Of a stretch of DNA of 17,829 bases, positions 1 to 17,829 are shown one piece after another. Source of the stretch: an archaeon (GTDB taxonomy: Archaea; AGJL01; Methanococci; Methanococcales; Methanocaldococcaceae); assembly GCA_024278985.1 (NCBI GenBank), contig JAJRSC010000008.1, positions 1-17,829 of the forward strand, in the 5' to 3' direction. Both the position numbers and the translations under genes were made by a program. The notes beneath the pieces are model-generated. The model did no database searches. It was not told where the DNA came from and saw only the letters and a list, made by a program, of their open reading frames with translations. How positions within the stretch are numbered: the first letter of the stretch is position 1; every line of letters begins with the position of its first letter.

Positions 1-1181
1 TCATTAGTTACAGCATATATTCCATAATTTCCAGAAGCTCTATCGTTCCATTCATTTAATTTTATATATCCTGTTACAGGTTTAACTCCGAATTTTCCTT
101 CAGAGTATTTTATGGTGTTTTCTTTAATTAATTTAGCTAATAAATCTGCATCATATTTTCCTTCTTTTTCTAACATCTCTGCATAGGATAATGATAAAAC
201 CCATGCTGCATCATAAACATTTAAAGCATACTGATCTGGCTCTCCACCAAATTTATTTTTAAATTCTTCTTTTAATTTTTTAGCTTCATCAGATTCTGAA
301 TAAAACATTGTTGAATATAATTTAATTTTTGCAGCTTTATTTTTAACTTCCTCAACTACTTTTTTACTGTTTGCAGTTCCATCACAACCTATCCATATAT
401 GATTTAATAGAGGTGATTTATCATCTAATTGAGATAATAATGTAGCTACCTCTTCATAACCAATAAATACAATGGCTGTATCATTACCTTTATTTTTAAT
501 AGCATCAGAAGCTGTTTGAATTATAGGACTCCAATCTCCTATATCAGGAGGATATCTTATTTCTTTAATTATATTTATTCCCATTTCTTTGGCTCTTTTA
601 ACAGTTGCTTCTTTTAAACCATCTCCCCAGGCATCTCCTCTATATATAACAATTAAATTTTTAATTCCTAAATTTTTAGCTAAATTTGCTATAACATTAC
701 CCTGGAAATTATCATTAGGGACAAATCTAAATATATATTTCTTCTGCTCTGGGGATGTAAAGCCCAATATTTCTGGAGCAGCAGTTGATGATGGAGATAT
801 AATAATTATTTTATTTGAATTTACATAATCTTTTATATTTTTTATTTCTCCACTGGACATAGGTCCAAGGAATACATTAATTCCTCTGGCATGAAGTGCT
901 TGAATTTTATCTAAACATATTTTTGGATCTGCTCTTGTATCTTCAGTATATATTTTTATAGTATAAGGAAGACCTTTTTCTTTAAAGTAGTTGTTTATTT
1001 TTTCTTCTGCTAATTGACAAATTTCTTTTTCATTATTTCCATATGTTGCCAATCCTCCAGATAAATCAACTAATAATCCAATATCTATTTCATTACTATT
1101 TTTCTCTGTTGTATTTTGTTGGGTACATCCTGCAAAGATTCCAATTAAAATTATTGACAGTATCAATAAAATTTTTCTCAT
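1..1181 (-). CDS. Branched-chain amino acid ABC transporter substrate-binding lipoprotein (LivJ/LivK-like, type I PBP); partial, runs off the left edge
   Basis: Not in the ORF track; translated by hand from ATG at 1181: MRKILLILSIILIGIFAG-C-TQQNTTEKNSNEIDIGLLVDLSGGLATYG...EDTRADP...VFLGPMSSG...IIISPSSTA...FRFVPND. Has a lipobox (FAGC) and LivJ-type motifs. RBS GGTGA at 1190-1186. Confidence 0.88.
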   Translation of the reverse strand, partial: MRKILLILSIILIGIFAGCTQQNTTEKNSNEIDIGLLVDLSGGLATYGNNEKEICQLAEEKINNYFKEKGLPYTIKIYTEDTRADPKICLDKIQALHARGINVFLGPMSSGEIKNIKDYVNSNKIIIISPSSTAAPEILGFTSPEQKKYIFRFVPNDNFQGNVIANLAKNLGIKNLIVIYRGDAWGDGLKEATVKRAKEMGINIIKEIRYPPDIGDWSPIIQTASDAIKNKGNDTAIVFIGYEEVATLLSQLDDKSPLLNHIWIGCDGTANSKKVVEEVKNKAAKIKLYSTMFYSESDEAKKLKEEFKNKFGGEPDQYALNVYDAAWVLSLSYAEMLEKEGKYDADLLAKLIKENTIKYSEGKFGVKPVTGYIKLNEWNDRASGNYGIYAVTN

Positions 1182-1210
1182 TAAATCACCTCTTTTAAGT
1201 GAATATAATC

Positions 1211-1263
1211 TATATAAAAATCAATTTCAATAAATTATTTTCGGTATAGAATATCTTTATATA
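1211..1263. promoter_or_regulatory. Divergent pair of archaeal TATA boxes (TTTATATA on - at 1218-1211 for the binding protein; on + at 1256-1263 for cheC)
   Basis: Two identical TTTATATA octamers pointing outward in the intergenic region between divergent genes. The AT-rich background lowers specificity. Confidence 0.5.
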
Positions 1264-1317
1264 CTATTAAAAATACTAAATAAATAATAAGAAATTTTAT
1301 TAAATGTGTGGGGATTT

Positions 1318-1926
1318 ATGAGTCTTTTAGAACCAATAAATAAATTAATTGATATTGGGAAAGAAGCTACAGAAAATATGACAAATGCTTTTATGGAATT
1401 AACTGGAGAAAATGTAGAAATTTTCTTTTTAGGTTTAAGATTTGCATTAATTGAATATGTTCCTGAACAATTTGGTGATGAGACATACAAAGCTACCAGA
1501 ATAGATTTTGATGGAGTACTTAAAGGAAAATCTCTTTTACTTCTACCAGAAAAAGATGCTGTAAAATTAGAAAAATTATTATTATTGGATATATTATGGG
1601 ATAGCTTAGTACATAAGGAACAACTACCTGATTATGAGGAAATGGAGAAATCATTAATCAATGAAGTCGGAAATATAGTTATATCATCTTTTTTAAATGT
1701 ATTTGCTAATAAATTAGGTGGAACTATAAATATAACACCACCAGAATTTATAAAAGATATGGGATTTAGTATTGTAGAATCGTTAATTACTGAAATTGCT
1801 GAAAAAACAGATATTGTTATGTTATTTGATAATAAAGTAGAGATAGTCGGAAGATTTCCAATAAAATGTCATATGATTATATTTATAGACCCAGAATCAT
1901 TTGAAAAATTAGATAAAATATTTTAG
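1318..1926 (+). CDS. cheC: CheC-family CheY-P phosphatase
   Basis: Motif S-x3-E-x2-N-x22-P (SLINEVGN...ITPP) in the C-terminal half, plus a 'FDGVLKGKSLLLLP' strand typical of CheC. Start placed at ATG 1318 after GTGGGGA (the track starts at 1306). Confidence 0.85.
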   Translation: MSLLEPINKLIDIGKEATENMTNAFMELTGENVEIFFLGLRFALIEYVPEQFGDETYKATRIDFDGVLKGKSLLLLPEKDAVKLEKLLLLDILWDSLVHKEQLPDYEEMEKSLINEVGNIVISSFLNVFANKLGGTINITPPEFIKDMGFSIVESLITEIAEKTDIVMLFDNKVEIVGRFPIKCHMIIFIDPESFEKLDKIF

Positions 1927-2780
1927 CTTTCTAATGGTTTTTGATATATTCTTTCTCTTGCGTTATATGTTTTGAAAAGTTCTTTTGCCTTTCCATGTAA
2001 GATTTCAGTTTTTCCTAAAATTAGAAAACCTCCTGGATTTAATGCTTCATAGAACTTTAAAAATATTTCAGCCTGAATTTTTTTATCAAAGTAAATAATG
2101 ACATTTCTACATAAAATCATATCCATATTTTTTAATGGAGGGTCTTTAATTAAATCATGAATTTTAAAGGTTACTATTTTTTTAATTTCAGGTTTTATCA
2201 TATATTCTTCTTCATTAAGCTTAGTAAAGTATTTTTGAATTATTGTTGGAGGAAGATTTTTTAATTGTTTTATATGATAAACTCCTCTTCTTGCCTTTGC
2301 TAAAACCTCTTTATCAATATCTGTTCCTGTAATTTTGGCATCAAATAATTTTCTATTATGTTTGTTCATAGCTTCTTTAACAATTATTGCAACACCATAA
2401 GGTTCTTCACCTGAAGAACATCCTGCACTCCAAATTCTTAGTTTTTTTCTGGATTTATCCTTAACAAAGTTATCAATAATTTTTTGAATTTCTTTATAAA
2501 CTGTAATATCTCTCCAAAATTCTGTAACATTTACAGTTAGAGTTTCTTCAAGTTTTTCCTTTTCTTCAGGATGAGTTCTTAGATATTCATAATATTCTTT
2601 AAAAGTGTTGCATTTTGTAGCTTTCATTCTAACTCTTAATCTTCTCATGATATAGTTATCTTTATATTGTGTAACATCAATTTTTAAAACTGTCTTAATA
2701 TAGTTTAATAATCTTTTATAATACATTTTTTCAATTGCATCTAAATCATCAATACTTTCAGGATTTCTATTTATTACCAT
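1923..2780 (-). CDS. cheR: Chemotaxis protein-glutamate methyltransferase CheR
   Basis: Motifs TVNVTEFWRD, RIWSAGCSSGEEPY, GTDID, DMILCRNVIIYF and LNPGGFLILGKTE. Confidence 0.96.
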   Translation of the reverse strand: MVINRNPESIDDLDAIEKMYYKRLLNYIKTVLKIDVTQYKDNYIMRRLRVRMKATKCNTFKEYYEYLRTHPEEKEKLEETLTVNVTEFWRDITVYKEIQKIIDNFVKDKSRKKLRIWSAGCSSGEEPYGVAIIVKEAMNKHNRKLFDAKITGTDIDKEVLAKARRGVYHIKQLKNLPPTIIQKYFTKLNEEEYMIKPEIKKIVTFKIHDLIKDPPLKNMDMILCRNVIIYFDKKIQAEIFLKFYEALNPGGFLILGKTEILHGKAKELFKTYNARERIYQKPLES

Positions 2781-2902
2781 ATAAAATACCCCATAATTAT
2801 ATTTTTTAGGTTTTAAATATAGATTATCTGATATTTAAGTATTTTTCTTTATTCTATTAATATATTATGACAATCATAATAATAATGTAATGAGTGAAAG
2901 AT

Positions 2903-3388
2903 ATGGATGTTTATGATGTTCTTTATAATTTATGTTTAGAGCATAAGGTTAAATATAATAATTCTTTTTTACCCTTATGGAAAGTGAAGGAAGAGAAAAT
3001 AAATATTGATGATGTTGATTTAAATTTACCATGGAAATGTTTAAGAGAGTTATCTATATATTTGTATGAGTTAAAGTTAAAACAGAGAGATAGTAAGGAA
3101 TTGATTAATTTTGATATTATAAAAGTCTTAGTAGGAGCAGCCTTTTTAAAAAATAGTGAAAGTTATTCTTTTACAGATAGTAATGTACCAATATCCTACC
3201 TCTCAGATATTCTTACAATTAGAATTAATATTTTATTGAGATACTATTACTTTTTAAATAAACCAAAAAATACCACAATATTTGAGGAAATAATACTAAA
3301 ATTTCCTCAAAAAAAAGATTTAAGAACAAATAATAAATATGATTTACAAAACTTAGTAAAAAAACTTAAAGATTTTTTGGTATATTAA
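2903..3388 (+). CDS. Hypothetical soluble protein (about 161 aa)
   Basis: Open frame with ordinary composition. ATG at 2903 follows GAGTGA (the track starts at GTG 2894). No recognisable motif. Confidence 0.75.
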   Translation: MDVYDVLYNLCLEHKVKYNNSFLPLWKVKEEKINIDDVDLNLPWKCLRELSIYLYELKLKQRDSKELINFDIIKVLVGAAFLKNSESYSFTDSNVPISYLSDILTIRINILLRYYYFLNKPKNTTIFEEIILKFPQKKDLRTNNKYDLQNLVKKLKDFLVY

Positions 3389-3568
3389 TCTTCTCAATTG
3401 CTATTTTTCTCTATTTTTTTAGTTCTTCTGTTATTAATTTTTTTCTCATAAGTAATGCTACAGTATTATTTTTTATACTATATTATTTATACTATATTAT
3501 AGATTATTTATAATAGTAATACTCATATTATAATGATGATTGAGGGGTGAAATTTGGGGTAGGGTATT

Positions 3569-4036
3569 ATGAATAAAGGAGCATATTTTTTTATAACATT
3601 AATTATTTTATTAATGTTATGTGGATGTATATTTAGTAATAAATATCCAGATATCTTATATAAAGATTTTAATGTTGTAAAAATCCAAAATACAACTATA
3701 GAAGGTAAGAAAGTAATCATTGTATATCAAATTAAAGATTATATAAATCCAGAACTTACTCCAGGAACTTTAGATTTAGATACTAAATACCAGATAGTGG
3801 CTATAACATACTATGTCTTTAAAAATACTGATGCAGATGAAGTTCAAATTATCTGTTACTATACAGCAAAAGATGGTAACTTAGTTCCATATTATAAATT
3901 TAAGATTTCAAGAAGAGATGCTAAATTAGCAGGACTTTTAGATATCTCTGATAAAGATTTATCTCAGATGGTTCTATACTTATTTAGTAGATTAAAAGCT
4001 TTAGGAGAATTATGGGTAAATCCTAAGCTACCATAA
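3569..4036 (+). CDS. Putative lipoprotein of unknown function
   Basis: N-terminal Lys, a hydrophobic stretch and a lipobox-like LCG-C. G-rich RBS (GGGGTAGGG) upstream. Confidence 0.75.
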   Translation: MNKGAYFFITLIILLMLCGCIFSNKYPDILYKDFNVVKIQNTTIEGKKVIIVYQIKDYINPELTPGTLDLDTKYQIVAITYYVFKNTDADEVQIICYYTAKDGNLVPYYKFKISRRDAKLAGLLDISDKDLSQMVLYLFSRLKALGELWVNPKLP

Positions 4037-4059
4037 AAAAGTATTTGGTGGTGATTAAA

Positions 4060-4635
4060 ATGGTTTATATAATTCCATTAACTGATGAAGAAAAAATGAG
4101 TATAATCTCAGGATTAAGAAGTACTGTTCCAGCAACAAGATTAGTTACTATTAGAAAATTACAAGAAATTTGTGAAATAAGACCTGAGGCAATATTATTT
4201 TTAGATGCTTATGATAAAACTACATTAAATGAAATTATAAGTCTATTAAAGCATATTATAGAATATGACCCTGATGAGATTATTAGAAGAGAGGCAGTTA
4301 TAGCTTTAGAAAAATTAAAAAAGGCATTAGGTACTAAATTTACAACATATGTTCCATTATGTAACAACTGTAAAAAACCTATTGATTTAGGTTGGGAGTA
4401 CTGTACTAACTGTGGCGCGGAAATAGATAAAATGACTTTTGAAGAAGATGTAAAAAGATGTAAAAAGTGTAATAAATATATTTTTGATACTTGGGTATAC
4501 TGTGCCCATTGTGGAACTAAATTAAAAGATATAGTAGTTGAAGAAGAACTAAGATGTCCAAACTGTAAAAGACCAATACAGCCAGAATGGATGGTTTGTC
4601 CATATTGTGGTTATAGACTAAAGAGAAAACCATAA
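4060..4635 (+). CDS. HEAT-like repeat plus three tandem zinc-ribbon (DZR-like) protein
   Basis: Helical N-terminus with DPDEIIRREAVIALEKL, then three CxxC-x10-CxxCG units (CNNC/CTNC, CKKC/CAHC, CPNC/CPYC). ATG 4060 follows GGTGA. Confidence 0.8.
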   Translation: MVYIIPLTDEEKMSIISGLRSTVPATRLVTIRKLQEICEIRPEAILFLDAYDKTTLNEIISLLKHIIEYDPDEIIRREAVIALEKLKKALGTKFTTYVPLCNNCKKPIDLGWEYCTNCGAEIDKMTFEEDVKRCKKCNKYIFDTWVYCAHCGTKLKDIVVEEELRCPNCKRPIQPEWMVCPYCGYRLKRKP

Positions 4636-4649
4636 AAAAGTGATTTTAA

Positions 4650-5312
4650 ATGAGTAATGTAGAAAAAGCAATAAAATCATTAAAGTCTGGCAAAATTGTT
4701 TTAGTATATGATTCTGATGATAGAGAAGGAGAAACTGATATGGTTATTGCCTCTCAATTTATAACTCCTGAAATAATAAGAATTATGAGAAAAGATGCAG
4801 GAGGATTAATTTGTACTGCTATACACCCAGATATTGCTAATAAATTGGGAATCCCTTACCTTGTAGATATTTATAAAGAGGCTATTAATAAATACCCAAT
4901 TTTAGAAAGTTTATATCCATATGATATTCCATATGATGAAAAATCTTCATTTTCTATAACCATTAACCATAGGAAAACCTTCACAGGGATAACTGATAAA
5001 GATAGAGCTTTAACAATAAAAAAATTAACAGAACTTGTTAGGTTAGGGTATTATTCAAACTTTGGTAAGGAATTTAGAAGTCCTGGACATGTGATCTTAT
5101 TAAAAGCAACTGAAGGATTAGTTAAAAAAAGAAAGGGTCATACTGAAATGACAGTTGCCTTAGCAGAAATGGCTGGGCTTATCCCAATAACTACAATATG
5201 TGAAATGCTTGGAGATGATGGATATGCTTTAAGTAAAAATGAAGCTAAGAAATATGCTGAAAAGCATAATTTAATATTTTTAGAAGGTGAAGAATTAATT
5301 AATACTACTTAG
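4650..5312 (+). CDS. ribB: 3,4-dihydroxy-2-butanone 4-phosphate synthase
   Basis: Motifs [35 protein letters not shown] and ICEML. Confidence 0.96.
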
Positions 5313-5319
5313 AAAAATT

Positions 5320-5667
5320 TTAAGCTGCTCCTGGTTGTTGTAAAATTTTTTGTAATTTTTCTTGGAATTCTTTTAATTTTTCTTTTAATTTTTCTTCCTG
5401 TTTTGTTAAAGTTTTTAATCTTAATTCTAATGTTTCTATTTTTTCTTTTAATTCTTTAATTATCTCTTCCTTATTTCTTTTTATAAATAATCCTCCAACT
5501 AATTTATAAACTTCATTATCTGTTGCTTTTTCTAATTCTTCTAATGCTTTCTGACTTTCTTTTAATTCTGCTTCAACACCTTGCTTTTGCATTAAAATCA
5601 TTTGTAATTGTTGTTGAAATTGTTGCAATTGCATTAATTGAGCTTGTACTTGTGGTGGAACTTCCAA
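5320..5667 (-). CDS. pfdB: Prefoldin beta subunit
   Basis: Gln-rich N-terminal helix, single hairpin VYKLVGGLFIK, C-terminal coiled coil. TTG at 5667 is the likely start given RBS GGTGA spacing; alternatives are 5673 and 5676. Confidence 0.93.
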   Translation of the reverse strand: MEVPPQVQAQLMQLQQFQQQLQMILMQKQGVEAELKESQKALEELEKATDNEVYKLVGGLFIKRNKEEIIKELKEKIETLELRLKTLTKQEEKLKEKLKEFQEKLQKILQQPGAA

Positions 5668-5767
5668 AATCATCACCTATAAATTTTTTATTATTATTTT
5701 ATTTTTAAAGAAGTTATATTTAAAAGTATCTGAAAGCTATAAAATAAAAACTAACCTTTAATATTAA

Positions 5768-5801
5768 TAAAAATAGTAAAAATATAGTAAAAATAAAGTA
5801 A
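5768..5801 (-). terminator. Probable oligo-T terminator of the r-protein operon
   Basis: Directly after the rps19 stop the - strand reads TACTTTATTTTTACTATATTTTTACTATTTTT, i.e. three T5 tracts in an imperfect ~11-nt tandem repeat. Confidence 0.5.
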
Positions 5802-6254
5802 TTATTTAATTGGTACGAACATACTTGACCTTGTTGCTCCCATACCTGGAGCTCCGTGTTGTACTGGTTTTCTTGTTAATGAAAACTCTCCTAAATAGTG
5901 CCCTATCATTTCAGGAGTTATTTTTACTTCGACAAACTCTTTTCCATTATAAACTCCAAAAGTTAGTCCAACCATATCAGGAGTTATAACAAAATCTCTA
6001 CAGTGTGTTCTTATAATTCTTGGCTCTTTACCTTTGTTTAATAATCTTCTTGCTCTTTTAATTTTTATAGCTAATTTTCTTTGTTGAGGAGTTAATCCTC
6101 TTAGTATAGTTCTTCTTTGTCTTGCAGGAAGTAATTTTATAAATTCTTTCATAGGCATTTGTTGTAACTCTTCTAAAGTATAACCTCTATATCTAAATTC
6201 TACCTTTTTAGATATAGTTTGTTTCTTTTTTCTTGCTCTTCTTTTTGATGCCAT
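5802..6254 (-). CDS. rps19p: 30S ribosomal protein S19 (uS19)
   Basis: [45 protein letters not shown] 6254 follows GGTGGG. Confidence 0.97.
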
Positions 6255-6268
6255 ATTACCCACCTAAA

Positions 6269-6997
6269 TTATTTCCTTACTCCTGTTCTTCTTGCTGAAA
6301 TATGTCCTACTTTTCTACCAGCAGGAGCTTTTTTTCTTGATACAGTAGTTGGTTTTCCAGTGTGTTGGTGTCTTCCACCACCAAATGGGTGGTCTACAGC
6401 GTTCATTGCAACTCCTCTAACTCTTGGCCATTTAATAGCTTTAGCTCTTAATGCATGGTATTTTTTACCTGCTTTAACTAATGGTTTTTCTAATCTACCT
6501 CCCCCAGCAACTACACCAATAGTAGCTCTACATTTAGAATCAAATGCTTTAATTTTTCCAGATGGTAATTTAACATATGTTGTATCTTCATCATGAGTCA
6601 TAACATATGCATAGCCTCCTCCAGCTCTAACTAACTTTCCACCATCTCCAGGAATAGTTTCTATATTAAATACAGGAATACCTTCTGGAATTTCTCCTAA
6701 TGGTAAAACATTACCTGGTTTTATACTTGCTCCATAACCACATTCAATAATATCTCCAACTTTAACCCCTTCAGGAACGATATATAATTTCTCTTCACCT
6801 GTTTCAAATAATATCTTTGCAAGTGGAGCACTTCTACCTGGGTCGTGAAGAATATCAATAATTTTTCCAATAACTTTTCCATTTTTTTCAGCATCATCAT
6901 ACTTTCTATATTTTGCCTCTCCCCTTCTTTTATGGGAAGGACATGTATATACACTTCCTCCTCTACCTCTTCTTTGAGAAATTAATCTTTTTCCCAT
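6269..6997 (-). CDS. rpl2p: 50S ribosomal protein L2 (uL2)
   Basis: MGKRLISQRRGRG, HDPGRSAP, WPRVRGVAMNAVDHPFGGG. ATG 6997 follows GGTGA. Confidence 0.98.
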   Translation of the reverse strand: MGKRLISQRRGRGGSVYTCPSHKRRGEAKYRKYDDAEKNGKVIGKIIDILHDPGRSAPLAKILFETGEEKLYIVPEGVKVGDIIECGYGASIKPGNVLPLGEIPEGIPVFNIETIPGDGGKLVRAGGGYAYVMTHDEDTTYVKLPSGKIKAFDSKCRATIGVVAGGGRLEKPLVKAGKKYHALRAKAIKWPRVRGVAMNAVDHPFGGGRHQHTGKPTTVSRKKAPAGRKVGHISARRTGVRK

Positions 6998-7010
6998 TAA
7001 AATCACCTTT

Positions 7011-7271
7011 TTAGTAGATTCCTAAACTTGCAGCAATTTTACCTGCATCATATCCTTCTTTAAGCTTTATATATGCCTTTTTTTCTCCTTTAGGTGTTAT
7101 TAAAGTATTTACTTTTTCTACTTCAACATCAAATAATTCCTTCATAGCTCTTTTTATATCCTGTTTTGTTGCTTTTCTATGTACAATAAAAACTAATTTA
7201 CCCTCTTCTTCTAACAATCTAACAGCTTTTTCTGTTACTACTGGGGCAATTATTACCTTAAATGGGTCCAT
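7011..7271 (-). CDS. rpl23p: 50S ribosomal protein L23 (uL23)
   Basis: [25 protein letters not shown]; conserved operon position. Confidence 0.97.
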
Positions 7272-7273
7272 GT

Positions 7274-8035
7274 TTATTCACCAAATCTTTCTTTTAATTT
7301 CTCTATAGCATTTTCTGTAAATACTGTTAATCTTCCAGCTACTCCTCCAGGAGCTAAATGTATAATTCCTAAATCTTTAGCAGTTATAACATCAACTCCT
7401 GGTAAGTTTCTTGATGCAAGAATTGCCTCACATCTATCTCCTACAACAACTAAAACACTTTTAGGTTTTTTGTATCTTCTACCTCTCATTTTTCCTTTTC
7501 CAGCTCTAATTTTTATTCCTTCTTTAGCCCTTATAATATCTTCAGCTATTCCAAATTTTTCAAAAACATTATAAACTTCTTTAGTTTTTTTAAGATTTTC
7601 AAATTCATTATCTACAACTATTGGCAATTCTGTAATACTAAACTTATGTCCTCTTTCTTTAACTAATTCTATATCTTTAGTTGCTGATAAAGCACTTTTA
7701 ATTGCCTTAATTCTTTCTTTTTTATTAATTCTTTCCCATAAGATTTTTTCAACTTTTGGAGGGTGTGCTCTTCTACCCCCTACAGCCATAGGTGCAAAAG
7801 CTGCTCTACCTCCTGGTAATCTTGGTACTCTTGCTAATCCATATCCTTTACCATAACTTTCTGCACTTCTTCTTTTTCCAGCTAATAAATCAGTCCCTTT
7901 TGGTTGTAATCTTGCAGTAAATGCTGATAAAAATGCTCTTTTTATTAAATCAGGTCTATATTCTTCATTAAAAAATGAAGGTAATTCTATCTCTTTAAGT
8001 GTTTCTCCTTCTAAGTTATATACCTTAGCCATCAT
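7274..8035 (-). CDS. rpl4p: 50S ribosomal protein L4 (uL4)
   Basis: [43 protein letters not shown]. Start is 8035 or 8032. Confidence 0.97.
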
Positions 8036-8046
8036 TATTACTCACC

Positions 8047-9045
8047 CTATTTTTTTGGCTCAGTGCTTATATATGTTATTTCTGGAACTTTAATTAATGG
8101 CTCTTCTGGTCTTATTGCACTTCTTAAAACTATTAATCTCTTAGCAGGTCCTTGAACTGAGCCTTTTAATATTACATATTTGTTTTTTATTATTCCATAA
8201 TGTGGGAATCCTCCTTTAGGAACTATTTCTTCTCCATTATCTCCAATTTTTAAAATTCTCTTGTTATATTCTGTTCTTTGATGATAACCCATTTGTCCTG
8301 GTCTTGGAACTGTCCACATTATCATTTTTGGTTGCCATGGGTTTATAGAACCAACATGTCTTGCATGTCCTTGTCTTTTATGTTTTCTTGGTTGTATTTT
8401 AACTCCCCATCTTTTAATAACTCCTTGAAACCCTTTACCTTTTGTTATTCCAATAGTATCAATTAATTCTCCTTCTTGGAAAACATCTGTTATATTTAAT
8501 TGTTTTCCTAAGATTTCTTTAGCATAGTTTAATCTTTCTTCTAAATTATTTCCTCCAATTCTTATTTCTAAAATTTCTGGCTTTTTCTTAGGAAGACAGG
8601 TTAATTTTGGATTTGTATGGATAAGAACTCTAACATCTTCAATTCTATCCTTTATTTCATCTAAGTAATCAACAGTTTTTCTATCTTCTTTTTTAGGAAG
8701 TTGTATTTTTCTTTCTAACTCTTTATCTAATTCATCTGCCCAAATTTCTGTTAATGTTGTTAAATAGTTTCTTTCATTTCTTCCATAAACTCTAATACCA
8801 AATACATTAATTGGTGGAGCTTCCATTATTGTTATTGGAGTAAAAACTTCTTGTCCAGCTCTTGGACTTTTTTGATTGTCTTCTTTAATTAATGCATGAC
8901 TCATTCCTGCCTTATATACTGGATAAGCTTGCAATCTAACTTTATCTTCATCTGGCCAGCTTCTAATTCTTGGTACTGGTCTTTTTGCTCTTTTTCTTGG
9001 ACTAAATCCTAACGAACCTCTTCTTGGTCTGTGATATTTAACCAT
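8047..9045 (-). CDS. rpl3p: 50S ribosomal protein L3 (uL3)
   Basis: [53 protein letters not shown] upstream. Confidence 0.98.
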
Positions 9046-9094
9046 ACCTATAAACCTCCTATAATATTTTAAAGAAATGATAATTTTTAATTAA

Positions 9095-9153
9095 TATTTT
9101 GTGTTTTGCCTGTCATTGCCAAAATCTGGCTTTTCAGGCGAGACCCCAAAATA
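9095..9153 (-). promoter_or_regulatory. Structured 5'-leader hairpin upstream of rpl3 (candidate r-protein leader RNA)
   Basis: Nested inverted repeats TATTTTG/CAAAATA, GCCTG/CAGGC and GCCA/TGGC form a GC-rich island in an otherwise very AT-rich spacer. Confidence 0.6.
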
Positions 9154-9188
9154 GGAAATGTAATTCTAATTAAAAATATATTCTAAGT

Positions 9189-9203
9189 ATATATAATTTT
9201 TGG
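9189..9203 (-). promoter_or_regulatory. Putative BRE/TATA promoter of the rpl3 operon
   Basis: The - strand reads CCAAAAATTATATAT, a purine run followed by TTATATA. This implies a transcription start near 9165 and a leader of about 120 nt. Confidence 0.5.
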
Positions 9204-9218
9204 TATATGGAAAAATAG

Positions 9219-11402
9219 TTATTCAAGCTCTCCCATAATTTTTGGAAAACCTGAATAATATTTATCTTTTAGTTCTTCTAATGTAATACTAATATTTTTG
9301 TTATTTATACTAATATTTAGTTTATCCTTTCCTACTTTACCAATTACAAAGCCATCTATTTCTTTTAAAATATCTTCTACATTTTCAGGTCTTACAGATA
9401 ATATAATTCTTCCAGAAGTTTCTGAGAATAATAAAATATCTTCTCTTAAATTATTTTTATTATATTCAGATAGATTTACATCTAAACCTACATTATAATT
9501 TATACAAAACTTAGCTAAAGCTATAGCTAACCCTCCTCTTGAACAATCTTTTGCTCCTGTTATAAGAGACTTATTAATTAACTTTCTAACTTTATCATAA
9601 ATTTGTTTTTCTTTTCTTAAATTTACCCTTGGAACTATTCCACATTCTGTATTATGAATAACCTTATAATATTCACTACCTCCCATTTCATCCTTTGTTT
9701 CATTAGTTATAATTAATATATCTCCTTCTCTTGGTTTTATAAATATTCCAGGAATTTTTTCGACATCTTCAATTTTTCCAATTATAGCTACTGCAGGAGT
9801 TGGATTTATTGGATAATCTTTAATATTTATTATTGTTTCATTATACAAACTTACATTTCCTCCCACTACAGGAATTTCAAAAGCATAACATGCCTCAGCT
9901 AATCCTTCAATACATTTTTTTAGTTGCCAATATCTTTCAGGCTTTTCTGGATTTCCAAAGTTTAAATTATCAAGCATAGCTATTGGTTTAGCCCCAACTG
10001 TTGCTAAATTTCTTACACACTCAGAAACTGAATAGACAGAGCCAATATATGGGTTTAATTTACAAAATCTTGAATTACAATCAGTTGCTAATCCAATTCC
10101 CATAGGATATAGTTCATCTATTTTTAAAACAGCAGCATCTTTTCCAGGTTTAACAACAGTCCTAATTTGAACATCATAATCATATTGACTATAAACCCAT
10201 TCTCTTGAGCAAATATTTGGACTCTCTAAGATTTTTAATATTGCATCTTTCAAATCAACTAATGGAATTTTATTTTTATCATCTATTTTTTCTCTAATAT
10301 CTGCCTTTTCTTCTCTGTCATATAGAGGGGCATTTGTTAATAAGTCAATTGGTAAATCTACAACTACCTCTCCATTGTATTTAGCTATTATCCTTTTATT
10401 GTCTGTTGTTTCACCAATAACAGAGGCAGGTAAGTTATATTTTTCAAATATCTTTATTATCTCTTCTTCACTTCCCTTTTCTACTGCTAATAACATTCTC
10501 TCCTGACTTTCAGATATCATAATTTCATATGGAGTTAATGGCTCTCTTAGAATAACATTATTTAAATTTAAAATACATCCTGATAAACACATTTCAGTAG
10601 ATGCTCCAGACAATCCAGCAGCTCCTAAATCTTTCATTGCCTTAACTTTACCTGTTTTTACTGCCTCTAAAATAGCATCAATTAAACATTTTTCAGTAAA
10701 TGCATCTCCTATTTGGACAGAAGGTCTATCTTCTTCACTTTCCTCTGTTAAATCTTTGGATGCAAAACTTGCCCCTCCTATTCCATCTCTTCCTGTTGAA
10801 CCAACTAAAATTAAGGAATATCCAGGTTTATCAATTTTTCCTCTTATTATCTCCTTTTCTCTAACTAATCCAATACATACAACATTTACCAAATTGTTAA
10901 AGTTAAAAGAATCATCAAACTCTACCTCTCCTCCAACAGTAGGAACTCCTATTCTATTTCCATAATCTCCAATACCTCTAACAACTCCATCTATTAACCA
11001 TCTAACTTTTTCACCTTCTTCTCCAAAAGGATTACCAAACCTTAAAGGGTCTAATAGAGCTATTGGCCTTGCTCCCATTGATAAAACATCCCTAACAATT
11101 CCTCCCACTCCAGTAGCTGCTCCATTGTATGGGTCAATATATGATGGATGATTATGACTTTCCATAGCTAAAGCTAAACATATATCTTTATTTAACCTTA
11201 TAACAGCAGCATCATCCCCTATTCCAACAACAATATCCTTATTAGTTTTTTCATTTATTGTTTTAGAAAAAATTCTCAAAAGTTTTTTAGAACTTCTATA
11301 AGCACAGTGCTCACTCCAGAGATTCTCAAACATTGCTAATTCAATTTTATTTAACTTTCTGCCTAACTTCTCCTCAATATATTTTATATCTCTTTCATCC
11401 AT
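9219..11402 (-). CDS. purL: Phosphoribosylformylglycinamidine synthase subunit PurL (small type)
   Basis: [57 protein letters not shown]; 727 aa. Confidence 0.97.
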
Positions 11403-11419
11403 ATTTATCCAAACCTTAA

Positions 11420-12196
11420 TTATTCTTCTACAATAACATCAATACTGTATATTTTAGATGCTTTTTCTCCATTTATTTCATACTCAATATAAAAATCTAA
11501 TGGTAACTCTCCCAATTCCATAGGTTTTATATATATAATATATGATTTAGATTCTTCTTTTTCTAAGTTACTTATTTTAGGCAATTTTTTACCTTTAAAC
11601 TCCTCACCTAATAGTTTAATAGTGATATTACTAATTTTATTTTCACTAATATTTTTTATAGTGAGTGTGACTTTTGTCCATCTATTAACCTTAAAGTTGT
11701 TCTTATCAATATTAAGTTCAATATCTTTTATTTGTTTAATTTTCTTTTCAACAATTTCTTTAGTTTCTTTGGCAGATTGATAGTCTGGTTTAAGTTTTAA
11801 AACTTTATCAAAACATTTGATAGCTTCTTCATATCTACCCAGTTTTGATAGGGCTAATCCTAAATTGTACCATGCATCTACATAATTAGGATTGATTTGA
11901 ATAGCCTTTTCATAACACTTAATAGCCTCCTCATATCTTCCCAATTTAGCTAAGGCAACTCCTTTATTGTTCCAGGCATAATAATAATTAGGGTCAATTT
12001 CAAGGGCTTTATCATAACACTTAATAGCCTCTTCATATTTTCCTAACTTAGCTAAAGCTACTCCCTTATTGTTCCATGCTGGTGCAAAATTAGGATTTAA
12101 TTCAATTGCTTTATCAAAACATTCAATAGCCTCTTCATATTTTCCTAACTTAGCTAAAGCTAATCCCTTATTATACCAAGCCATAAAATCTTCCAT
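11420..12196 (-). CDS. Tetratricopeptide-repeat protein (4 TPRs) with a C-terminal Ig-like/CARDB-like beta domain
   Basis: Four 34-aa units AW(Y/N)N(K/L)G(L/V)AL.KLG.YEEAI.C, then a beta-rich tail (VTLTIKN...[18 protein letters not shown]). ATG 12196 follows GGGGAGTGG (the track starts at 12217). Confidence 0.88.
11820..12172. repeat. Intragenic 102-bp-period direct repeats (TPR units)
   Basis: AATAGCCTCTTCATATTTTCCTAACTTAGCTAAAGCTA (38 bp) is identical at 12023-12060 and 12125-12162. More diverged copies lie near 11921 and 11820. Confidence 0.9.
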
Positions 12197-12506
12197 AATA
12201 ATCCACTCCCCACACATTTATAAATATTGAAAATTAAAAATAACAAATAATTATACGTCATTTGAGGTTTTATTTTTAATTCTAAATCTTGCAGGATAAT
12301 ACATAATTTTTTTACAATACATAATTAACCATAATCTAATATTTAAACTTATTTTTTAAACTTATTTTTAGTTAATTAATATTTTTTATCTGTTTTATTT
12401 TGTATTATAAATATAGAAATATATACAACCTTAAAACCAAAAAATATTTATAGAACTTTAAAGTAATATAATATATGAGAAAAAAAATAGCTAAAAAGGT
12501 GAAAAA

Positions 12507-12938
12507 ATGGTTGACAAAAATGTAGATGTTAATGAATTAGTAAGAGCATATGTTTCACAAATTGAGGGATTAAGAGCAGAAATTGCAAGAATTGATACTG
12601 CAATATCAGCATTAAGACAATCATTAGCTACCTTAAGAAGTTTAAAAGAGTTAGGAGAAGGTAAAATAGTATTAGTTCCTGTTGGAAGTATTGCTCAGGT
12701 AGAAATGAAAATTGAAAAAATGGATAAAATTGTTGTATCAGTAGGACAAAATATTTCAGCTGAGTTAGAATTTGATGAGGCATTAAAATACATTGAAGGA
12801 GAAATTAATAAATTATTAGCTTTAAGATTAATATTAGAACAAAGTATAGCAGAACTATATAGTAAAATAGAGGATGAAATAGAAAAATTACAAAGTGGTG
12901 AAGAAAAAGAAGAGGAGGAAAATGCTAAAGAAGAGTAA
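12507..12938 (+). CDS. Gamma-prefoldin (filament-forming, alpha-type prefoldin paralogue)
   Basis: Closely matches my recollection of M. jannaschii gamma-PFD (MJ0648): VRAY..QIEGLRAEI, LRQSLATL.SLK.LGEGK.VLVPVGSIAQVEMK.EKMDK.VVSVGQNISAELE..EALKYIE, and an acidic tail. Two beta-hairpins. RBS GGTGA at 12498-12502 and TATA-like TTTATA at 12447-12452. Confidence 0.9.
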   Translation: MVDKNVDVNELVRAYVSQIEGLRAEIARIDTAISALRQSLATLRSLKELGEGKIVLVPVGSIAQVEMKIEKMDKIVVSVGQNISAELEFDEALKYIEGEINKLLALRLILEQSIAELYSKIEDEIEKLQSGEEKEEEENAKEE

Positions 12939-13074
12939 AGAAGAAATTATAAAATTTATAAAAAATCTCCCTGAAAATAGAAAAATATTTATTAATCTAT
13001 CAGGAATTTGGGTAGAGGTTAATAAAGAAGAAGCATTAAAATATCTTGAAGAGTTAGATGAATCTAAGGATTAA
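12922..13074 (+). CDS. Uncalled 50-aa mini prefoldin-hairpin protein
   Basis: ATG 12922 to TAA 13074 gives MLKKSKEEIIKFIKNLPENRKIFINLSGIWVEVNKEEALKYLEELDESKD. GAGGAGG at 12912-12918. Overlaps gamma-PFD by 17 nt, fills the whole gap to cobT, and resembles the hairpin/helix junctions of both prefoldins in this window. Confidence 0.78.
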   Translation: MLKKSKEEIIKFIKNLPENRKIFINLSGIWVEVNKEEALKYLEELDESKD

Positions 13075-14070
13075 TTCTTCTGTTTTTTCCATTATTTTTT
13101 TTCCACTAAAACCAGATTTTTCACAATAAACTGCTAATCCCCCTGCTCCTACTCCTTCTTTTACTGCTCCAAGGCAGTATTTTTTTAGACCTTCTATTTT
13201 TGAGTTTTTAAATGGTAATTCAGCTCCATAAATTGGAATCTTTCCAATTTCTTTTATTATTCCAATAATATCAGAGTATTTATCATTGATTACAAACTCT
13301 GTTGTAGCAAGACAGATATTTTTTAATTTATAGAGTTCTTTTATAACTGCTAAAACAGCAGTCATTTGAGTACCTCCAGCCAAAATTACTTTTTTATTTT
13401 CTTCAATAAATGATATTGCCAATGCTGCATTAACTACAATCATTTTATCTCCAACAGCATTTAAAATACTAAAAACATTATCATCCCCAGAATATTTTAG
13501 ACCTTTTTTAACAATCTCTAATTTTAAAGAATGGGGATTATTTATAGAGCCAGAACTAACTTTTCCCTCAGCATTATATCCTAATCCTAATAAAACACCC
13601 AATGCTGAAGTTGTACCTCCAGGAACACATTCACCTAAGATTAAAGATTCAGATGGAAGATTTTTTCCTAATAAATATGCAATATTAAATAATTTTTCAC
13701 TGTCCTTTATAGCTTGTCCTTTCTCTAACCTTCCAGTAGGTTCATTATCTAAATTTATGTATGGAACCTTTGGCTTAATAAAAGAACCAGCATCAATAAT
13801 AAGACTCTTTATATTATTTAGCTCAATACAGGCTCTACTTATAAATGCAGGTGTTGGGGAAAAGTTTGAATCTACAGGAATTTTATTTAATGTTTTTGGC
13901 TTACCATAAAAAACAATTTCAGCATCTAAAGCAGGAGTATATTTTATAATATCTCTATGAACTCCTGAAATAGGATAAAAAAGAGTTGTCTCAATTGATG
14001 ATAAGGTACATATAAATAGAGGGTTATTAAAAGATTCTAAAAATTTATTATCATCATAATATACTATCAT
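13054..14070 (-). CDS. cobT: Archaeal CobT-type nicotinate-nucleotide:dimethylbenzimidazole phosphoribosyltransferase (UPF0284)
   Basis: YTPALDAE, PTPAFISRA, LGECVPGGTTSA, VILAGGTQM, VKEGVGAGG. Confidence 0.85.
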   Translation of the reverse strand: MIVYYDDNKFLESFNNPLFICTLSSIETTLFYPISGVHRDIIKYTPALDAEIVFYGKPKTLNKIPVDSNFSPTPAFISRACIELNNIKSLIIDAGSFIKPKVPYINLDNEPTGRLEKGQAIKDSEKLFNIAYLLGKNLPSESLILGECVPGGTTSALGVLLGLGYNAEGKVSSGSINNPHSLKLEIVKKGLKYSGDDNVFSILNAVGDKMIVVNAALAISFIEENKKVILAGGTQMTAVLAVIKELYKLKNICLATTEFVINDKYSDIIGIIKEIGKIPIYGAELPFKNSKIEGLKKYCLGAVKEGVGAGGLAVYCEKSGFSGKKIMEKTEELILRFI

Positions 14071-14186
14071 ACTATCACTTTAATATAAAAATTCTAAAAA
14101 TTTTTTCCTAAAAGTTAAATTTAATAAAATATATATTTATCTTAAACTTAATAAATAATTACAAAAATATATAATAAGGGATTAAC

Positions 14187-14963
14187 GTGAATCTAAACCT
14201 TAAAGATATCGGTTTAAAGATATTTTCAGTTATTTGTCTTTTAGTATTTTGGGAAGGCTTAGCAATTTATATAAATAATCCTGTAATTCTCCCAAAAATT
14301 GAAGATGTTCTTAATGTTCTTATCCATCCTTATGTTAGTTTATTAGGAACTGGAAGCTTAATAGATAATGCTATTGTAAGTATTAAAAGAGTTCTATTAG
14401 GGTTTATTATTGCAGCTATTTTAGCAGTTCCAATTGGTATATTGATGGGATACTATAGAGTTGTCTATAATTTTTTAGATACTATAATAGAGCTTATAAG
14501 ACCTATTCCTCCATTGGCATGGGTACCTTTATCTCTTGCCTGGTTTGGGATTGGAGATGTATCTATGATATTTATTATATTTATTGGAGCATTTTTTCCA
14601 ATATTAATAAACACCATTTCTGGAGTTAAAAGTGTTCCAATTCCACTGATTGAAGCAGCTTTAACATTGGGAGCTAAAGGAAGAGATATATTATTAAAGG
14701 TTATAGTCCCAGCAAGTTCTCCATATATATTAACTGGTTTAAGAGTTGGGATTGGTATAGCATGGATGTGTGTAGTTGCTGCTGAAATGCTTCCAGGAAG
14801 TAATTCAGGTTTGGGTTATCTTATAATGTATGCATACTCTTTAAGTAGAATGGATGTAGTAATTGCAAGTATGATAGTTATTGGATTAATTGGGTTAGTA
14901 TTGGATAAAATCCTAAGATTCATAGAAGATAAGTATTTTGTATGGAAAAAAATGATGAAGTGA
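14187..14963 (+). CDS. ABC transporter permease, NitT/TauT/SsuC family
   Basis: RPIPPLAWVPL, EAA loop (LIEAALTLGA), VVAAEM, GLGYLI; several hydrophobic segments. Confidence 0.92.
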   Translation: MNLNLKDIGLKIFSVICLLVFWEGLAIYINNPVILPKIEDVLNVLIHPYVSLLGTGSLIDNAIVSIKRVLLGFIIAAILAVPIGILMGYYRVVYNFLDTIIELIRPIPPLAWVPLSLAWFGIGDVSMIFIIFIGAFFPILINTISGVKSVPIPLIEAALTLGAKGRDILLKVIVPASSPYILTGLRVGIGIAWMCVVAAEMLPGSNSGLGYLIMYAYSLSRMDVVIASMIVIGLIGLVLDKILRFIEDKYFVWKKMMK

Positions 14964-14968
14964 GATAA

Positions 14969-15745
14969 ATGGAAGTAAAATTAAAAGTAGTAAATCTTTC
15001 TAAGGTTTTTGAGTTCAATGGAAATAAAATAAAAGCTCTTGAAAATATAAATTTAGATGTTTATGAAAATGAATTCTTAACAGTTATGGGTCCTTCTGGT
15101 AGTGGAAAAACAACATTATTAAGGATTATTGCAGGATTAGAAAAACCTACTGAAGGGAAAATATTATTAGATGGAAAAGAAGTTAAGGGTCCTGGAGCAG
15201 ATAGGGGTGTTGTATTTCAGCAATATACACTAATGCCATGGAGAACTGTTCTAAAAAATGTAACTTTTGGTTTAGAATTAAAAAAAATTCCAAAAAATGA
15301 AAGAATTAAAATAGCTAAAAAATTTATAAAAATTGTAGGTCTTGAAGGGTTTGAAGATGCATATCCCTGGCAGTTAAGTGGAGGAATGCAACAGAGGGTA
15401 GCAATAGCAAGAACATTAGCTAATAATCCTGAAATTGTTTTAATGGATGAACCCTTTGCTGCTTTAGATGCACAAACAAGGGTTATAATGCAAAATGAAT
15501 TATTAAAAATTTGGGAATCTGAAAAGAAAACTGTTTTTTTTGTTACTCATAGTATTGACGAGGCAATATATTTATCTGATAGAGTTGTCATTTTAACAGC
15601 AAGGCCAGGAAAAATAAAGGATATAATTGAGATTGATTTAGATAGGCCAAGAGATAGGACAAGTGTTGAATTTTTAAAATATAGAAAAATTATTTATGAT
15701 ATTTTAAAAGAGGAAGTTATTAAGACAATAAAGAGGGGAGAATAA
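14969..15745 (+). CDS. ABC transporter ATP-binding protein, NitT/TauT/SsuB family
   Basis: Walker A GPSGSGKT, signature LSGGMQQR, Walker [22 protein letters not shown]. Confidence 0.95.
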
Positions 15746-16473
15746 TGAAAGGTTATGAAATTGTAGAAATTATTGAAAATTTTGCACCTCCAGAGTTGGC
15801 TATTGAAGGGGATAATATTGGACTACTTTTTGGAGAGTTAGATAAGGAAGTAAATAAAATAGGTATTGCTTTGGATTGTTCTTTAATGGTTATTGAGAGA
15901 GCATATAATGAGGGAGTAGATTTTTTAATTACTCATCATCCAATTATTAAGAATCCTGTTAATAGATTTGTTGATTTAATATATAAGAAGATTTCACTTC
16001 TATCTAAAGCAGATATTACATTATATACTGCCCATACAAATTTAGATATATGTAAAAATGGGCTAAATGATTGTTTAGCAGAGCATTTTAATTTAAAAGA
16101 TGTAAAAGAGTTATATCCAAATGGTTTAGGTAGAATTGGAATATTTGAAGGGTCTTTTAATGATTTCTTAAAAAAGGTTGAAGAAGTTGAAAAAAATTAC
16201 ACTTTAGTAAAAAGTAAAGAAGTAGAGGATAATTTTAAATTGGCAGTATTATCTGGTTATGGCCTTTCTCAGAAAGATATAGAATATGTATCTAAAATAG
16301 CAGATGTTTATCTTTCAGGAGATTTAACACACCATTCTAAGATATTGGCTGAAGAATTGGGGTTAATTGTAGTTGATGCTACTCACTACTCAACTGAGGT
16401 TTTTGGATTAAAGAAATTCTTAAAATATCTTAATAAAAATATAAACTTAGATATTGTTAGTTTAGATTTCTGA
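15745..16473 (+). CDS. Nif3-like dinuclear metal-centre protein (DUF34; HcgD-like in Methanococcales)
   Basis: [31 protein letters not shown]. Start overlaps the upstream stop (TAATG). Confidence 0.9.
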
Positions 16474-16492
16474 TAAGAAGGGTGATATTATT

Positions 16493-17829
16493 ATGAAAAA
16501 AACTTTTCTACTGTTATTTTGTATATTTTTATTATCTGGAGTTTATGGAGTTGTTATAAAAGCTCCAGCAGTTTCACAAACAGAAGCAGGAACTTATGTT
16601 GGAGTTCCTATAACAATAGTTATTAATGTTAGTAAAGGAAGTGGTCATGTTTATATGGATACACTACCCTTAACTCAAATGGATATGCAAGGTTCTGCAA
16701 GAATTGCTGCAAAAGTTGCAGGAGAAGTTACTGGAAAAGATATGAATAAATACAATGTTTATATAACTGTAAGAAGTGATGTTCCTTTTGTTGGAGGTCC
16801 TTCTGCTGGAGGAACTATGTGTGTTGGAATAATTGCAGATTTATTAAACCTCTCTTTAAATCCTAAGGTTATGATGACAGGAATGATAAATCCTGATGGT
16901 TCCATAGGACCAGTTGGAGGTATTTTAGAAAAAATCGAAGCTGCTAAAAAAGCAAATTGTACAATTATGCTAATTCCAAAAGGTCAGAGATATGTTGAAG
17001 TTGATGGAAGAAAAGTAGATGCTGTTGAATTTGGTAAAAAAATAGGTGTTAAGGTTTATGAAGTAAGTAACATTTATGAAGCCCTCTCATACTTTACTAA
17101 TAAAAAATTCAAAATGAAAGAATATCCTGAGAATCCAGCTATAGAAAAGAAATATAAAGAGATTATGAAAAAACTTGCTGATAAGATTATTAAAATGGCA
17201 AATGATAAATATAATAAAATATCCAACATTTTAGAGACAGAATATTTTGGTTATGAGTATCAATATATGTTAAAAAATAATCTAAATCATGCAAAAAATT
17301 TACTTGATTTAGCAAATTCAGAATACTTAAATGGAGATTATTATTCAGCAACATCAAGAGCATTTAATGCTTTAATTATTCTTGAAAAAATACATGGAAT
17401 TATTAATTATTTGAATGGAGAAAATGTTAAGGATTATTTAATAAATATTCAAAATGAAATTGACCATAATAAAGAGATTATTTATAGCAAACCAATAACA
17501 ACAGATAATTTTGAGGTAATCTTAGCTGGAAGAGAAAGAATTTTTGAAGCAAAAAATTTAATGGACAAAGCTTGGAAATCCTATTATCTTGGAGAACTTG
17601 ATAAAGCTATAGAATATGGTGCATATGCTAAATTAAGAAGTGAATCAGCAATATGGTGGATAAATTTAGATAATGATACAGGTAAAAAAATAGATATTAA
17701 GAAACTTGAACCATTAGCACAGCAATATTTATCAAATGCAGAAGTTATTTATGCATACATAACAAGTATGTATCCAATGTTAAATATAGATTCAAATGAT
17801 TTGGAATATGCTAAAAAAGCATATAATAA
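16493..17829 (+). CDS. Secreted Lon-like S16 serine protease without an AAA+ domain (COG1750-like); partial, runs off the right edge
   Basis: Not in the ORF track; translated by hand: [19 protein letters not shown] (signal peptide)...VGGPSAGG...[20 protein letters not shown]. Ser codon at 16802 and Lys codon at 16931 are 43 residues apart, as in the Lon dyad. RBS GGTGA upstream. Confidence 0.9.

Follow-up and report, generated by a model that had tools for sequence, protein, structure and literature searches.

The subject of this paper is a small gene that follows, and overlaps, the gene for gamma-prefoldin (gPFD) in a 17,829-nucleotide stretch of DNA from an archaeon of the family Methanocaldococcaceae (GenBank assembly GCA_024278985.1, contig JAJRSC010000008.1, positions 1 to 17,829; this whole stretch is referred to as the window). 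Its 50-residue product, here called mini, is probably gPFD's own dedicated partner, so far unstudied, because the gene is conserved after gPFD and is co-inherited with it both in archaea and in vent bacteria. The small open reading frame (ORF) is very likely to be a real gene of the beta-prefoldin family, and on the basis of modelling its product appears reasonably likely to bind gPFD. It is further proposed, by analogy with an engineered filament cap, that mini caps gPFD filaments or controls their length, a reading to which we give a probability of about 0.4.

A reading made from the sequence only had proposed a 50-codon ORF beginning 17 nt inside the gPFD gene in the +1 frame, and this is confirmed: the frame offset, (12922-12507) mod 3, is 1 (Table 1). 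A GTG at 12895 would lengthen the frame to 59 aa. The ATG is the sole start kept in all nine Methanocaldococcus loci described here, and no conservation of upstream GTG or TTG starts was found across them. The search covered 41 Methanococcales genomes (that of the window and 40 relatives), of which 17 belong to the genus Methanocaldococcus. The 50-mer was matched at E ≤ 1.4e-12 in exactly nine of them, all other matches having an E of 0.0076 or worse. The gPFD protein was matched at E ≤ 1.5e-56 in the same nine, and its remaining matches were 24–31% identical, which is the level of PfdA. The expected position directly after gPFD is found in 9/9 gPFD-bearing genomes, and the small gene in none of the other 32. 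Within the genus, both genes are present in 9/17 genomes and neither in 8/17; genomes of one genus or phylum do not count as independent, and co-occurrence counts such as these overstate the number of independent events. The small frame is uninterrupted at each of the nine loci; it shares the strand of gPFD and starts 17–29 nt ahead of the gPFD stop.

The small ORF is under purifying selection. Nei-Gojobori dN/dS, computed over the 37 small-gene codons outside the gPFD overlap, is 0.026–0.35 wherever dS is defined (27 of 36 pairs), dS being saturated in the other nine pairs; the value is below 1, as had been anticipated. The variable columns at codon positions 1, 2 and 3 number 16, 11 and 31 of 37. 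By exact look-up, the orthologues of five named genomes (M. infernus, M. vulcanius, strain FS406-22, M. jannaschii, with accession WP_244409488.1, and M. indicus) carry the annotation hypothetical protein. The family is already in the databases, mostly under that name, and the earlier description of the gene as hidden does not hold, since RefSeq lists these orthologues.

The M. jannaschii locus was matched in 12 RNA-library runs from five studies, and contigs from three of the runs span gPFD and the small gene. Contigs reveal neither strand, nor a single transcript, nor translation, and they were therefore rejected as evidence of expression. One raw-read RNA run gave only three partial reads at this locus. 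We also rejected as family members two proteins of 600 and 607 aa (P0024 and P0026). In the table of 90%-identity clusters, one of them represents the cluster to which the 54-aa mini protein of M. jannaschii belongs, and the other is listed among its members. They are unrelated to the small protein, and their presence looks like a cluster-table error.

The fold of mini was predicted using AlphaFold2 on an alignment of the nine sequences. The model has a mean pLDDT of 85.2, with helices at residues 6–14 and 35–49 on either side of the hairpin listed in Table 1, in agreement with the helix, beta-hairpin, helix product suggested earlier. Comparison with the prefoldin families, also suggested earlier, gave a consistent result. 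The first eight ranks of a Foldseek search against the PDB are all beta-class prefoldin chains (2zdi_B, 2zdi_A, 2zqm, 1fxk_B, 1fxk_A, 3aei_A, 6nr8_2 and 6nr8_4), with TM(query) 0.55–0.66 and rmsd 1.7–2.7 Å over 39–44 columns. The best match is 2zdi_B (E=8.3e-3, TM(query) 0.65, rmsd 2.2 Å over 43 columns). The Pfam family PF01920 matches 8/9 orthologues at E ≤ 1, the best at E=7.7e-8, and PF02996 matches 7/9. The family straddles the PF01920 cut-off: one bacterial orthologue (L058) scores 29.6 bits, above it, and another (L052) 26.6 bits, below it. The top PDB match of the family profile is 3aei_A ('Prefoldin beta subunit 2', E=6.9e-5); the alignment covers the hairpin.

The resemblance to archaeal beta-prefoldin (PfdB; PF01920; 1fxk_A/B, 2zdi_A/B, 2zqm, 3aei_A) is one of layout. 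Both have a single beta-hairpin between an N-terminal and a C-terminal helix, and this layout is present in the model. The hairpin motif of mini, LP-x-x-R-K-I-Y ... V-E-V-x-K-E-E-A, aligns to profile positions 28–72 of 106, the only part of the PF01920 profile that the window copy covers. PfdB is the best structural match of mini, and the mini gene likewise lies beside that of an alpha-class partner. The differences are in length and in partner. Mini has 50 aa, compared to about 110–120 aa for PfdB, and the long coiled-coil 'tentacle' of the beta class is absent, the helices having 9 and 15 residues. The presumed partner is gPFD and not PfdA, and the window copy falls below the PF01920 cut-off. 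On the model, the small protein is a beta-class prefoldin hairpin core without the long coiled-coil arms.

The claimed identity of 8/17 residues with the PfdB encoded in the window (5320..5676, minus strand) is a correct alignment, and the claimed likeness to the second gPFD hairpin is also borne out, EALKY(I/L)E being common to the small ORF and to that hairpin with its following helix. Using hhalign, the family alignment matches the window PfdB with E=4.9e-4 and probability 31.7, and gPFD with E=0.0046 and probability 7.5; the second alignment leaves out the two middle strands through a gap of 21 columns. With sequences this short, no choice can be made between descent from PfdB and descent from gPFD.

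The upstream gene is identified by its product, which scores above the PF02996 cut-off and closely resembles the gPFD filament protein of M. jannaschii. The solved structure of that protein, PDB 6vy1_A ('Prefoldin subunit alpha 2'), is matched with E=3.9e-57, and the identity to the gPFD of the M. jannaschii locus (L009) is 72%. Orthologues occur in eight further genomes of the genus at 70–83% identity. The M. jannaschii protein forms homo-filaments (PMC11117396), and we infer by analogy that its orthologue in the window would do so.

Table 1 Features of the gPFD and mini locus, with positions in the window.
Feature	Position	Strand	Remarks
gPFD gene	12507..12938	+	143 aa, alpha-class, two hairpins; PF02996 84.4 bits (cut-off 23.2)
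Translation-initiation region of the small gene	12906..12924	+	AGGAGG Shine-Dalgarno-like motif, 3-nt spacer, ATG; in gPFD tail codons EEEEN
Mini beta-prefoldin gene	12922..13074	+	50 aa and stop; ATG at 12922, stop ends at 13074
Overlap of gPFD and small-gene frames	12922..12938	+	17 nt; small gene in frame +1
Predicted beta-hairpin codons	12985..13020	+	residues 22–33, strands 22–26 and 29–33 (AlphaFold2)
T-rich tract, possible archaeal oligo-T terminator of a two-gene transcript	13075..13105	+	runs of 6 and 8 T no more than 30 nt past the stop

The suggestion that the ribosome binding site is written into the codons of the acidic gPFD tail is correct as far as the motif is concerned (Table 1), and the 3' end of the organism's own 16S rRNA, ...GGATCACCTCC, carries CCTCC. 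A 16-nt string over the Shine-Dalgarno-like motif and the ATG is identical in 9/9 loci except for one R (purine) position. This part of the gPFD gene also differs from the rest in its synonymous sites. The gPFD alignment has 87 columns with an invariant residue and a degenerate codon, of which only 10 use a single codon in all nine genomes. These comprise 4/5 of the EEEEN codons, as against 6/82 of the other invariant-residue codons (Fisher p=4.4e-4). Constraint of this kind upstream of the small ATG fits a conserved initiation signal and coupled translation. At the other end of the locus, T runs of at least five occur within 80 nt past the small-gene stop in 9/9 loci, and none occurs between the gPFD start and the small-gene start. 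The tract may possibly end a two-gene transcript; this is a weak indication, the genome being AT-rich and the tract being also antisense to the convergent gene at 13054..14070. A sigma-70 promoter scan was set aside, as it found six sites compared to a shuffle mean of 7.1 and uses a model unsuited to archaea, and so was a terminator-like hairpin at 13162-13179, which sits inside the convergent gene.

The pair behaves as a unit. Its flanks differ among the nine loci, which fall into three different contexts. In 4/5 examined genomes that lack gPFD, the two genes that are its neighbours in M. jannaschii (one of DUF2115, the other NADH-oxidase-like) lie side by side, 11–320 nt apart. From this empty slot we conclude that the pair has been gained or lost as one cassette. 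In the M. indicus locus the mini gene is followed, after about 70 nt, by a tRNA-Leu(GAG) gene (L002:1727-1814); in the M. infernus locus a tRNA-Ala(GGC) gene (L003:2188-2264) precedes gPFD by about 150 nt. The presence of tRNA genes beside the cassette in two lineages fits insertion at tRNA-adjacent sites and does not show it. The M. indicus locus also has a tandem repeat at about 1853-2104, coding for a repeated IIIYHNYYIN-like peptide.

It is of particular interest that the pair is not restricted to archaea. When 1.84 billion representative proteins were searched with the family profile, 23 matched at E ≤ 1e-3; 16 of them were inspected, and 14/16 are small proteins of 46–92 aa with the hairpin motif of the family. 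Look-ups place them in the bacterial phylum Aquificota (Desulfurobacterium pacificum, accession SMP08084.1, and Persephonella sp.). One RefSeq record carries the name 'prefoldin subunit', and some IMG records 'chaperonin cofactor prefoldin'. A scan of species-representative genomes found 15 loci, in Desulfurobacteriaceae, Hydrogenothermaceae, Persephonella, other Aquificota, a metagenome-assembled genome (MAG) labelled WOR-3, unclassified MAGs and one Methanocaldococcus MAG. In 15/15 of them the small gene is directly downstream of a gene of 147–160 aa, which belongs to PF02996 (81–86 bits) and is 50% identical to the window gPFD (E=1e-40). This bacterial gPFD-like gene is far closer to the window gPFD than the archaeal PfdA proteins are.

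In a set of 178 Aquificota genomes the gPFD-like gene is present in 55, the small partner being matched at E ≤ 3.7e-7 in 54 of them. In the remaining genome, G192, a divergent ORF of 81 aa lies 55 nt downstream of the gPFD-like gene, and as judged by eye its layout is the same. Among the 123 genomes of the set that lack the gPFD-like gene, the search for the partner gave only two weak matches (7e-4), inside frames of 465–563 aa. In 48 of the 54 genomes the partner is within 200 nt downstream on the same strand, in five it is 0.8–2.6 kb downstream in the same cluster, and in one it is on another contig. Its length ranges from 50 to 99 aa by lineage, and overlap or adjacency is not universal. 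Around the hairpin, an alignment of 28 sequences has 49 core columns free of gaps; as judged from this alignment, the conserved feature is the oligomerisation core and not the arms. The pair comprises the only prefoldin-family genes above or near the cut-off in 5/5 bacterial genomes checked, and in these bacteria the small protein is therefore no modulator of a canonical prefoldin. To our knowledge, pair-bearing bacteria are not expected to have a group II chaperonin.

A maximum-likelihood tree rooted with PfdA places the gPFD-like proteins in one clade (support 100/98). Within it, Methanocaldococcus gPFD (95/87) is sister to one bacterial group (100/99) and nested among bacterial sequences; one bacterial row of the tree (G186_L067) is a partial-length sequence. 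The topology points to transfer of the pair between domains as a unit, the direction being not settled. The pairwise identities of mini and of gPFD-like proteins correlate (r=0.72 over 378 pairs), which was rejected as independent evidence of co-evolution because it reflects shared history. The bacterial sister group (L067-L069; G185, G186, G190) is GC-richer and has the gPFD-like proteins closest to Methanocaldococcus gPFD, with a mean identity of 66%, and its partner has 88–92 aa, with longer helices than archaeal mini. The donor or the recipient in the transfer may have been close to this group.

Some other features of the bacterial loci should be noted. In a conserved Aquificota neighbourhood (L052:1098-4217; L070:324-3514; L071:176-3354) the pair is accompanied by UPF0128 (PF03673, E=3.5e-100), a protein of about 240 aa for which no Pfam family was found, and two predicted membrane proteins of about 161–186 aa. 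These six genes are reordered in another lineage, where the partner is 2.5 kb from the gPFD-like gene. Hydrogenothermaceae and Persephonella have instead a YfdX-family protein (PF10938) after the pair. UPF0128 was rejected as a part of the archaeal system, as it occurs in Methanocaldococcus with or without gPFD and at a great distance from the locus; in G000, which is 86% complete, the search for it gave nothing. The 240-aa protein was rejected likewise, having given only one weak match. In one Hydrogenothermaceae genome (G044:C13:4059-4211) there is a second, partial gPFD-like match of 49 N-terminal profile positions (E=2.2e-16) in a 58-aa frame, which may be a gene fragment.

How might such a protein work? 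In canonical alpha2beta4 prefoldin, the beta subunits add their single hairpins beside the alpha hairpins in beta-barrels, and the long coiled-coil arms hold the substrate. gPFD polymerises through its two beta-sheet regions. Its filaments exceed 2 µm in vitro, in-cell structures reach about 500 nm, and heat shock induces it 26-fold, its form and role in the cell being stated as unclear by the 2024 imaging paper from which these observations come (PMC11117396). The same paper reports no interaction of gPFD with the canonical alpha or beta subunit. A genetic system exists for M. jannaschii. The passages of Glover et al. (2016; PMC4895442) considered here describe gPFD assembly as step-wise, and describe an engineered variant, TERM, in which one beta-sheet interface is dead and which caps the filaments, their length being set by the ratio of the two proteins. 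The existence of an engineered one-interface cap, to which the sequence-only reading had appealed, is borne out there.

On the basis of these observations, we propose that mini is a beta-class prefoldin reduced to its oligomerisation core and dedicated to gPFD. It would be made from the gPFD transcript, by way of the ATG 17 nt before the gPFD stop and the AGGAGG in the tail codons; with a shared transcript and an overlapped start, the amount of mini would therefore be tied to gPFD synthesis. Its hairpin would occupy the hairpin-binding site of gPFD, by analogy with beta subunits. Having no second hairpin, and so no bridge to the next subunit, it would terminate the chain, so that filament length would be limited and its mean set by the ratio of gPFD to mini. 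The resemblance to TERM is that mini would offer gPFD one competent beta-sheet interface and none for extension, and a length set by ratio is expected by analogy. The two differ in that TERM, as described in those passages, is full-length gPFD with its X2 sheet mutated and its coiled coil kept, while mini would be natural, beta-class, armless and encoded by a separate gene. The pair also resembles the canonical hexamer, in that a two-hairpin alpha-class subunit and a one-hairpin beta-class subunit are encoded together; unlike that hexamer, gPFD polymerises into filaments (6vy1) and reportedly does not bind the canonical subunits (PMC11117396).

Structure prediction for a complex of two gPFD and one mini, which had been suggested as a check, gave a score of 0.44, as against 0.14 for the best of three controls. 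At least 89% of contacts are shared between runs, and the partner has a pLDDT of at least 75. The expected preference over the controls is present in the prediction, but the score itself is weak: the mark used is reached by 58/80 solved complexes and 2/110 mismatched pairs, and at scores of 0.60 or less by 7/80 and by both mismatches, and the value obtained lies in a band that is more often wrong than right. This and several other points weigh against the capping proposal and the evidence under it. Complexes of alpha and beta prefoldin have been solved (1fxk, 2zdi), and the score may reflect likeness only. Filamentous gPFD has been seen in M. jannaschii cells that carry the small gene, so filaments persist in spite of the partner; the 500 nm limit might be due to nothing more than cell size. 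That mini is 'monofunctional' is an assumption, since barrel hairpins pair on both edges. The spacing of 3 nt between the AGGAGG and the ATG is short, and glutamate codons yield purine-rich strings anyway. There is no Foldseek match in the PDB at E ≤ 1e-3, as expected for 50 residues, and the window copy scores only 15.6 bits against PF01920 (E=0.016), below the gathering cut-off of 27.6. Finally, some bacterial partners have 81–99 aa and a long N-terminal helix, and lie 0.8–2.6 kb away, so that translational coupling and the 'armless' state are lineage-specific and not defining.

The main rival is that mini is a stoichiometric beta-like subunit that fills the beta slots of gPFD throughout and is not a cap. 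The data accord with such a role as well as they do with a cap, and we regard it as possible though doubtful. It would lead either to discrete particles of a gPFD2-mini4 type, analogous to alpha2beta4 with two long arms, or to a gPFD/mini co-polymer of altered geometry, and the long homo-filaments seen in vitro would then be partly due to the omitted partner. The complex score of 0.44 speaks equally for this arrangement, and the pair is, like canonical prefoldin, one of an alpha class with a beta class. It is moreover the sole prefoldin pair in the five bacterial genomes, and some lineages retain a partner of 81–99 aa with longer helices. Downstream products of overlapped, reinitiation-type starts are usually made in smaller amounts, which speaks against this role; so does the loss of the arms in three lineages, which would be odd for a subunit that holds substrate. 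The reported failure of gPFD to bind canonical alpha or beta subunits would leave its beta sites free to be filled in this way, whereas the filamentous gPFD reported in cells that have the gene argues against it (PMC11117396).

The other alternatives separate mini from gPFD assembly, or deny it a function. One is that the protein is real but serves another client or regulates gPFD expression, its linkage to gPFD being a matter of co-regulation under heat stress. Binding of mini to gPFD is a prediction of modelling, and the larger Aquificota neighbourhood, with UPF0128, the 240-aa protein and the two membrane proteins, hints at further partners. We nevertheless consider this unlikely, since the conserved part is exactly the oligomerisation hairpin of prefoldin (the 49 gap-free columns), the gene and gPFD-type genes occur together almost without exception in two domains, and UPF0128 is unlinked in Methanocaldococcus and present regardless of gPFD. 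Another is that mini acts on canonical prefoldin, competing with PfdB for PfdA and so re-tuning alpha2beta4 prefoldin under heat shock. Its similarity to the window PfdB in the hhalign comparison, and PF01920 as its best Pfam family, are in keeping with this. However, no PfdA or PfdB is above the cut-off in any of the five pair-bearing bacterial genomes, and mini is missing together with gPFD in 8/17 genomes of the genus, in which PfdA and PfdB were not searched for; in three of these eight, the gPFD query found only weak matches at the level of PfdA. Such a target seems very unlikely. Least probable of all is that there is no functional gene, the ORF having arisen by chance in the acidic-tail region or being a decaying prefoldin duplicate. 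It is indeed very short, and the window copy falls below the Pfam cut-off. Against this, dN/dS is well below 1 while dS is saturated, independent annotation pipelines call the gene, and the frame is intact in every locus read (nine in Methanocaldococcus, 15 in the species-representative scan and 11 further bacterial loci).

The convergent gene (13054-14070, minus strand, 338 codons) overlaps the 3' end of the small gene by its final 21 nt, and its sole Pfam match, to the phosphoribosyltransferase family PF02277 (DBI_PRT), is weak (E=0.0029) and below the cut-off. Elsewhere the context is ordinary: at the start of the window (1306-2780), CheC-like and CheR genes adjoin a gene for a periplasmic-binding protein, and at 5320-9045 there are PfdB and a ribosomal protein operon (L3, L4, L23, L2, S19).

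In the literature searched, supplements being outside its scope, we found no description of a partner for gPFD, of a mini-, truncated or bacterial prefoldin, or of a prefoldin pair in Aquificota, which agrees with the sequence-only reading, in which no natural partner of gPFD was said to be described. According to a passage of a 2021 review (PMC8567396), conventional bacteria have no prefoldins. Contrary to that passage, a pair of alpha- and beta-class prefoldins is common in one bacterial phylum (55/178 genomes), and the tree points to the transfer of such a pair between domains as a unit.

The finding matters because gPFD is both a heat-shock chaperone and a widely used scaffold for protein nanowires. 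Taken as a whole, the picture would be of gPFD as one half of a two-component mobile module, widespread in Aquificota and exchanged with Methanocaldococcus, in which mini is a genetically dosed chain stopper that sets filament length in the cell; in this full form we hold it to be tentative and rather improbable. If the two-component reading is true, prefoldin-type chaperones exist in bacteria, and the micrometre filaments used as nanomaterials represent the partner-free state. Mini could also supply a natural, 50-residue, hyperthermostable part for capping or tuning gPFD materials. A conserved partner consisting of the hairpin only opens the question of how filament length or oligomeric state is controlled to experiment.

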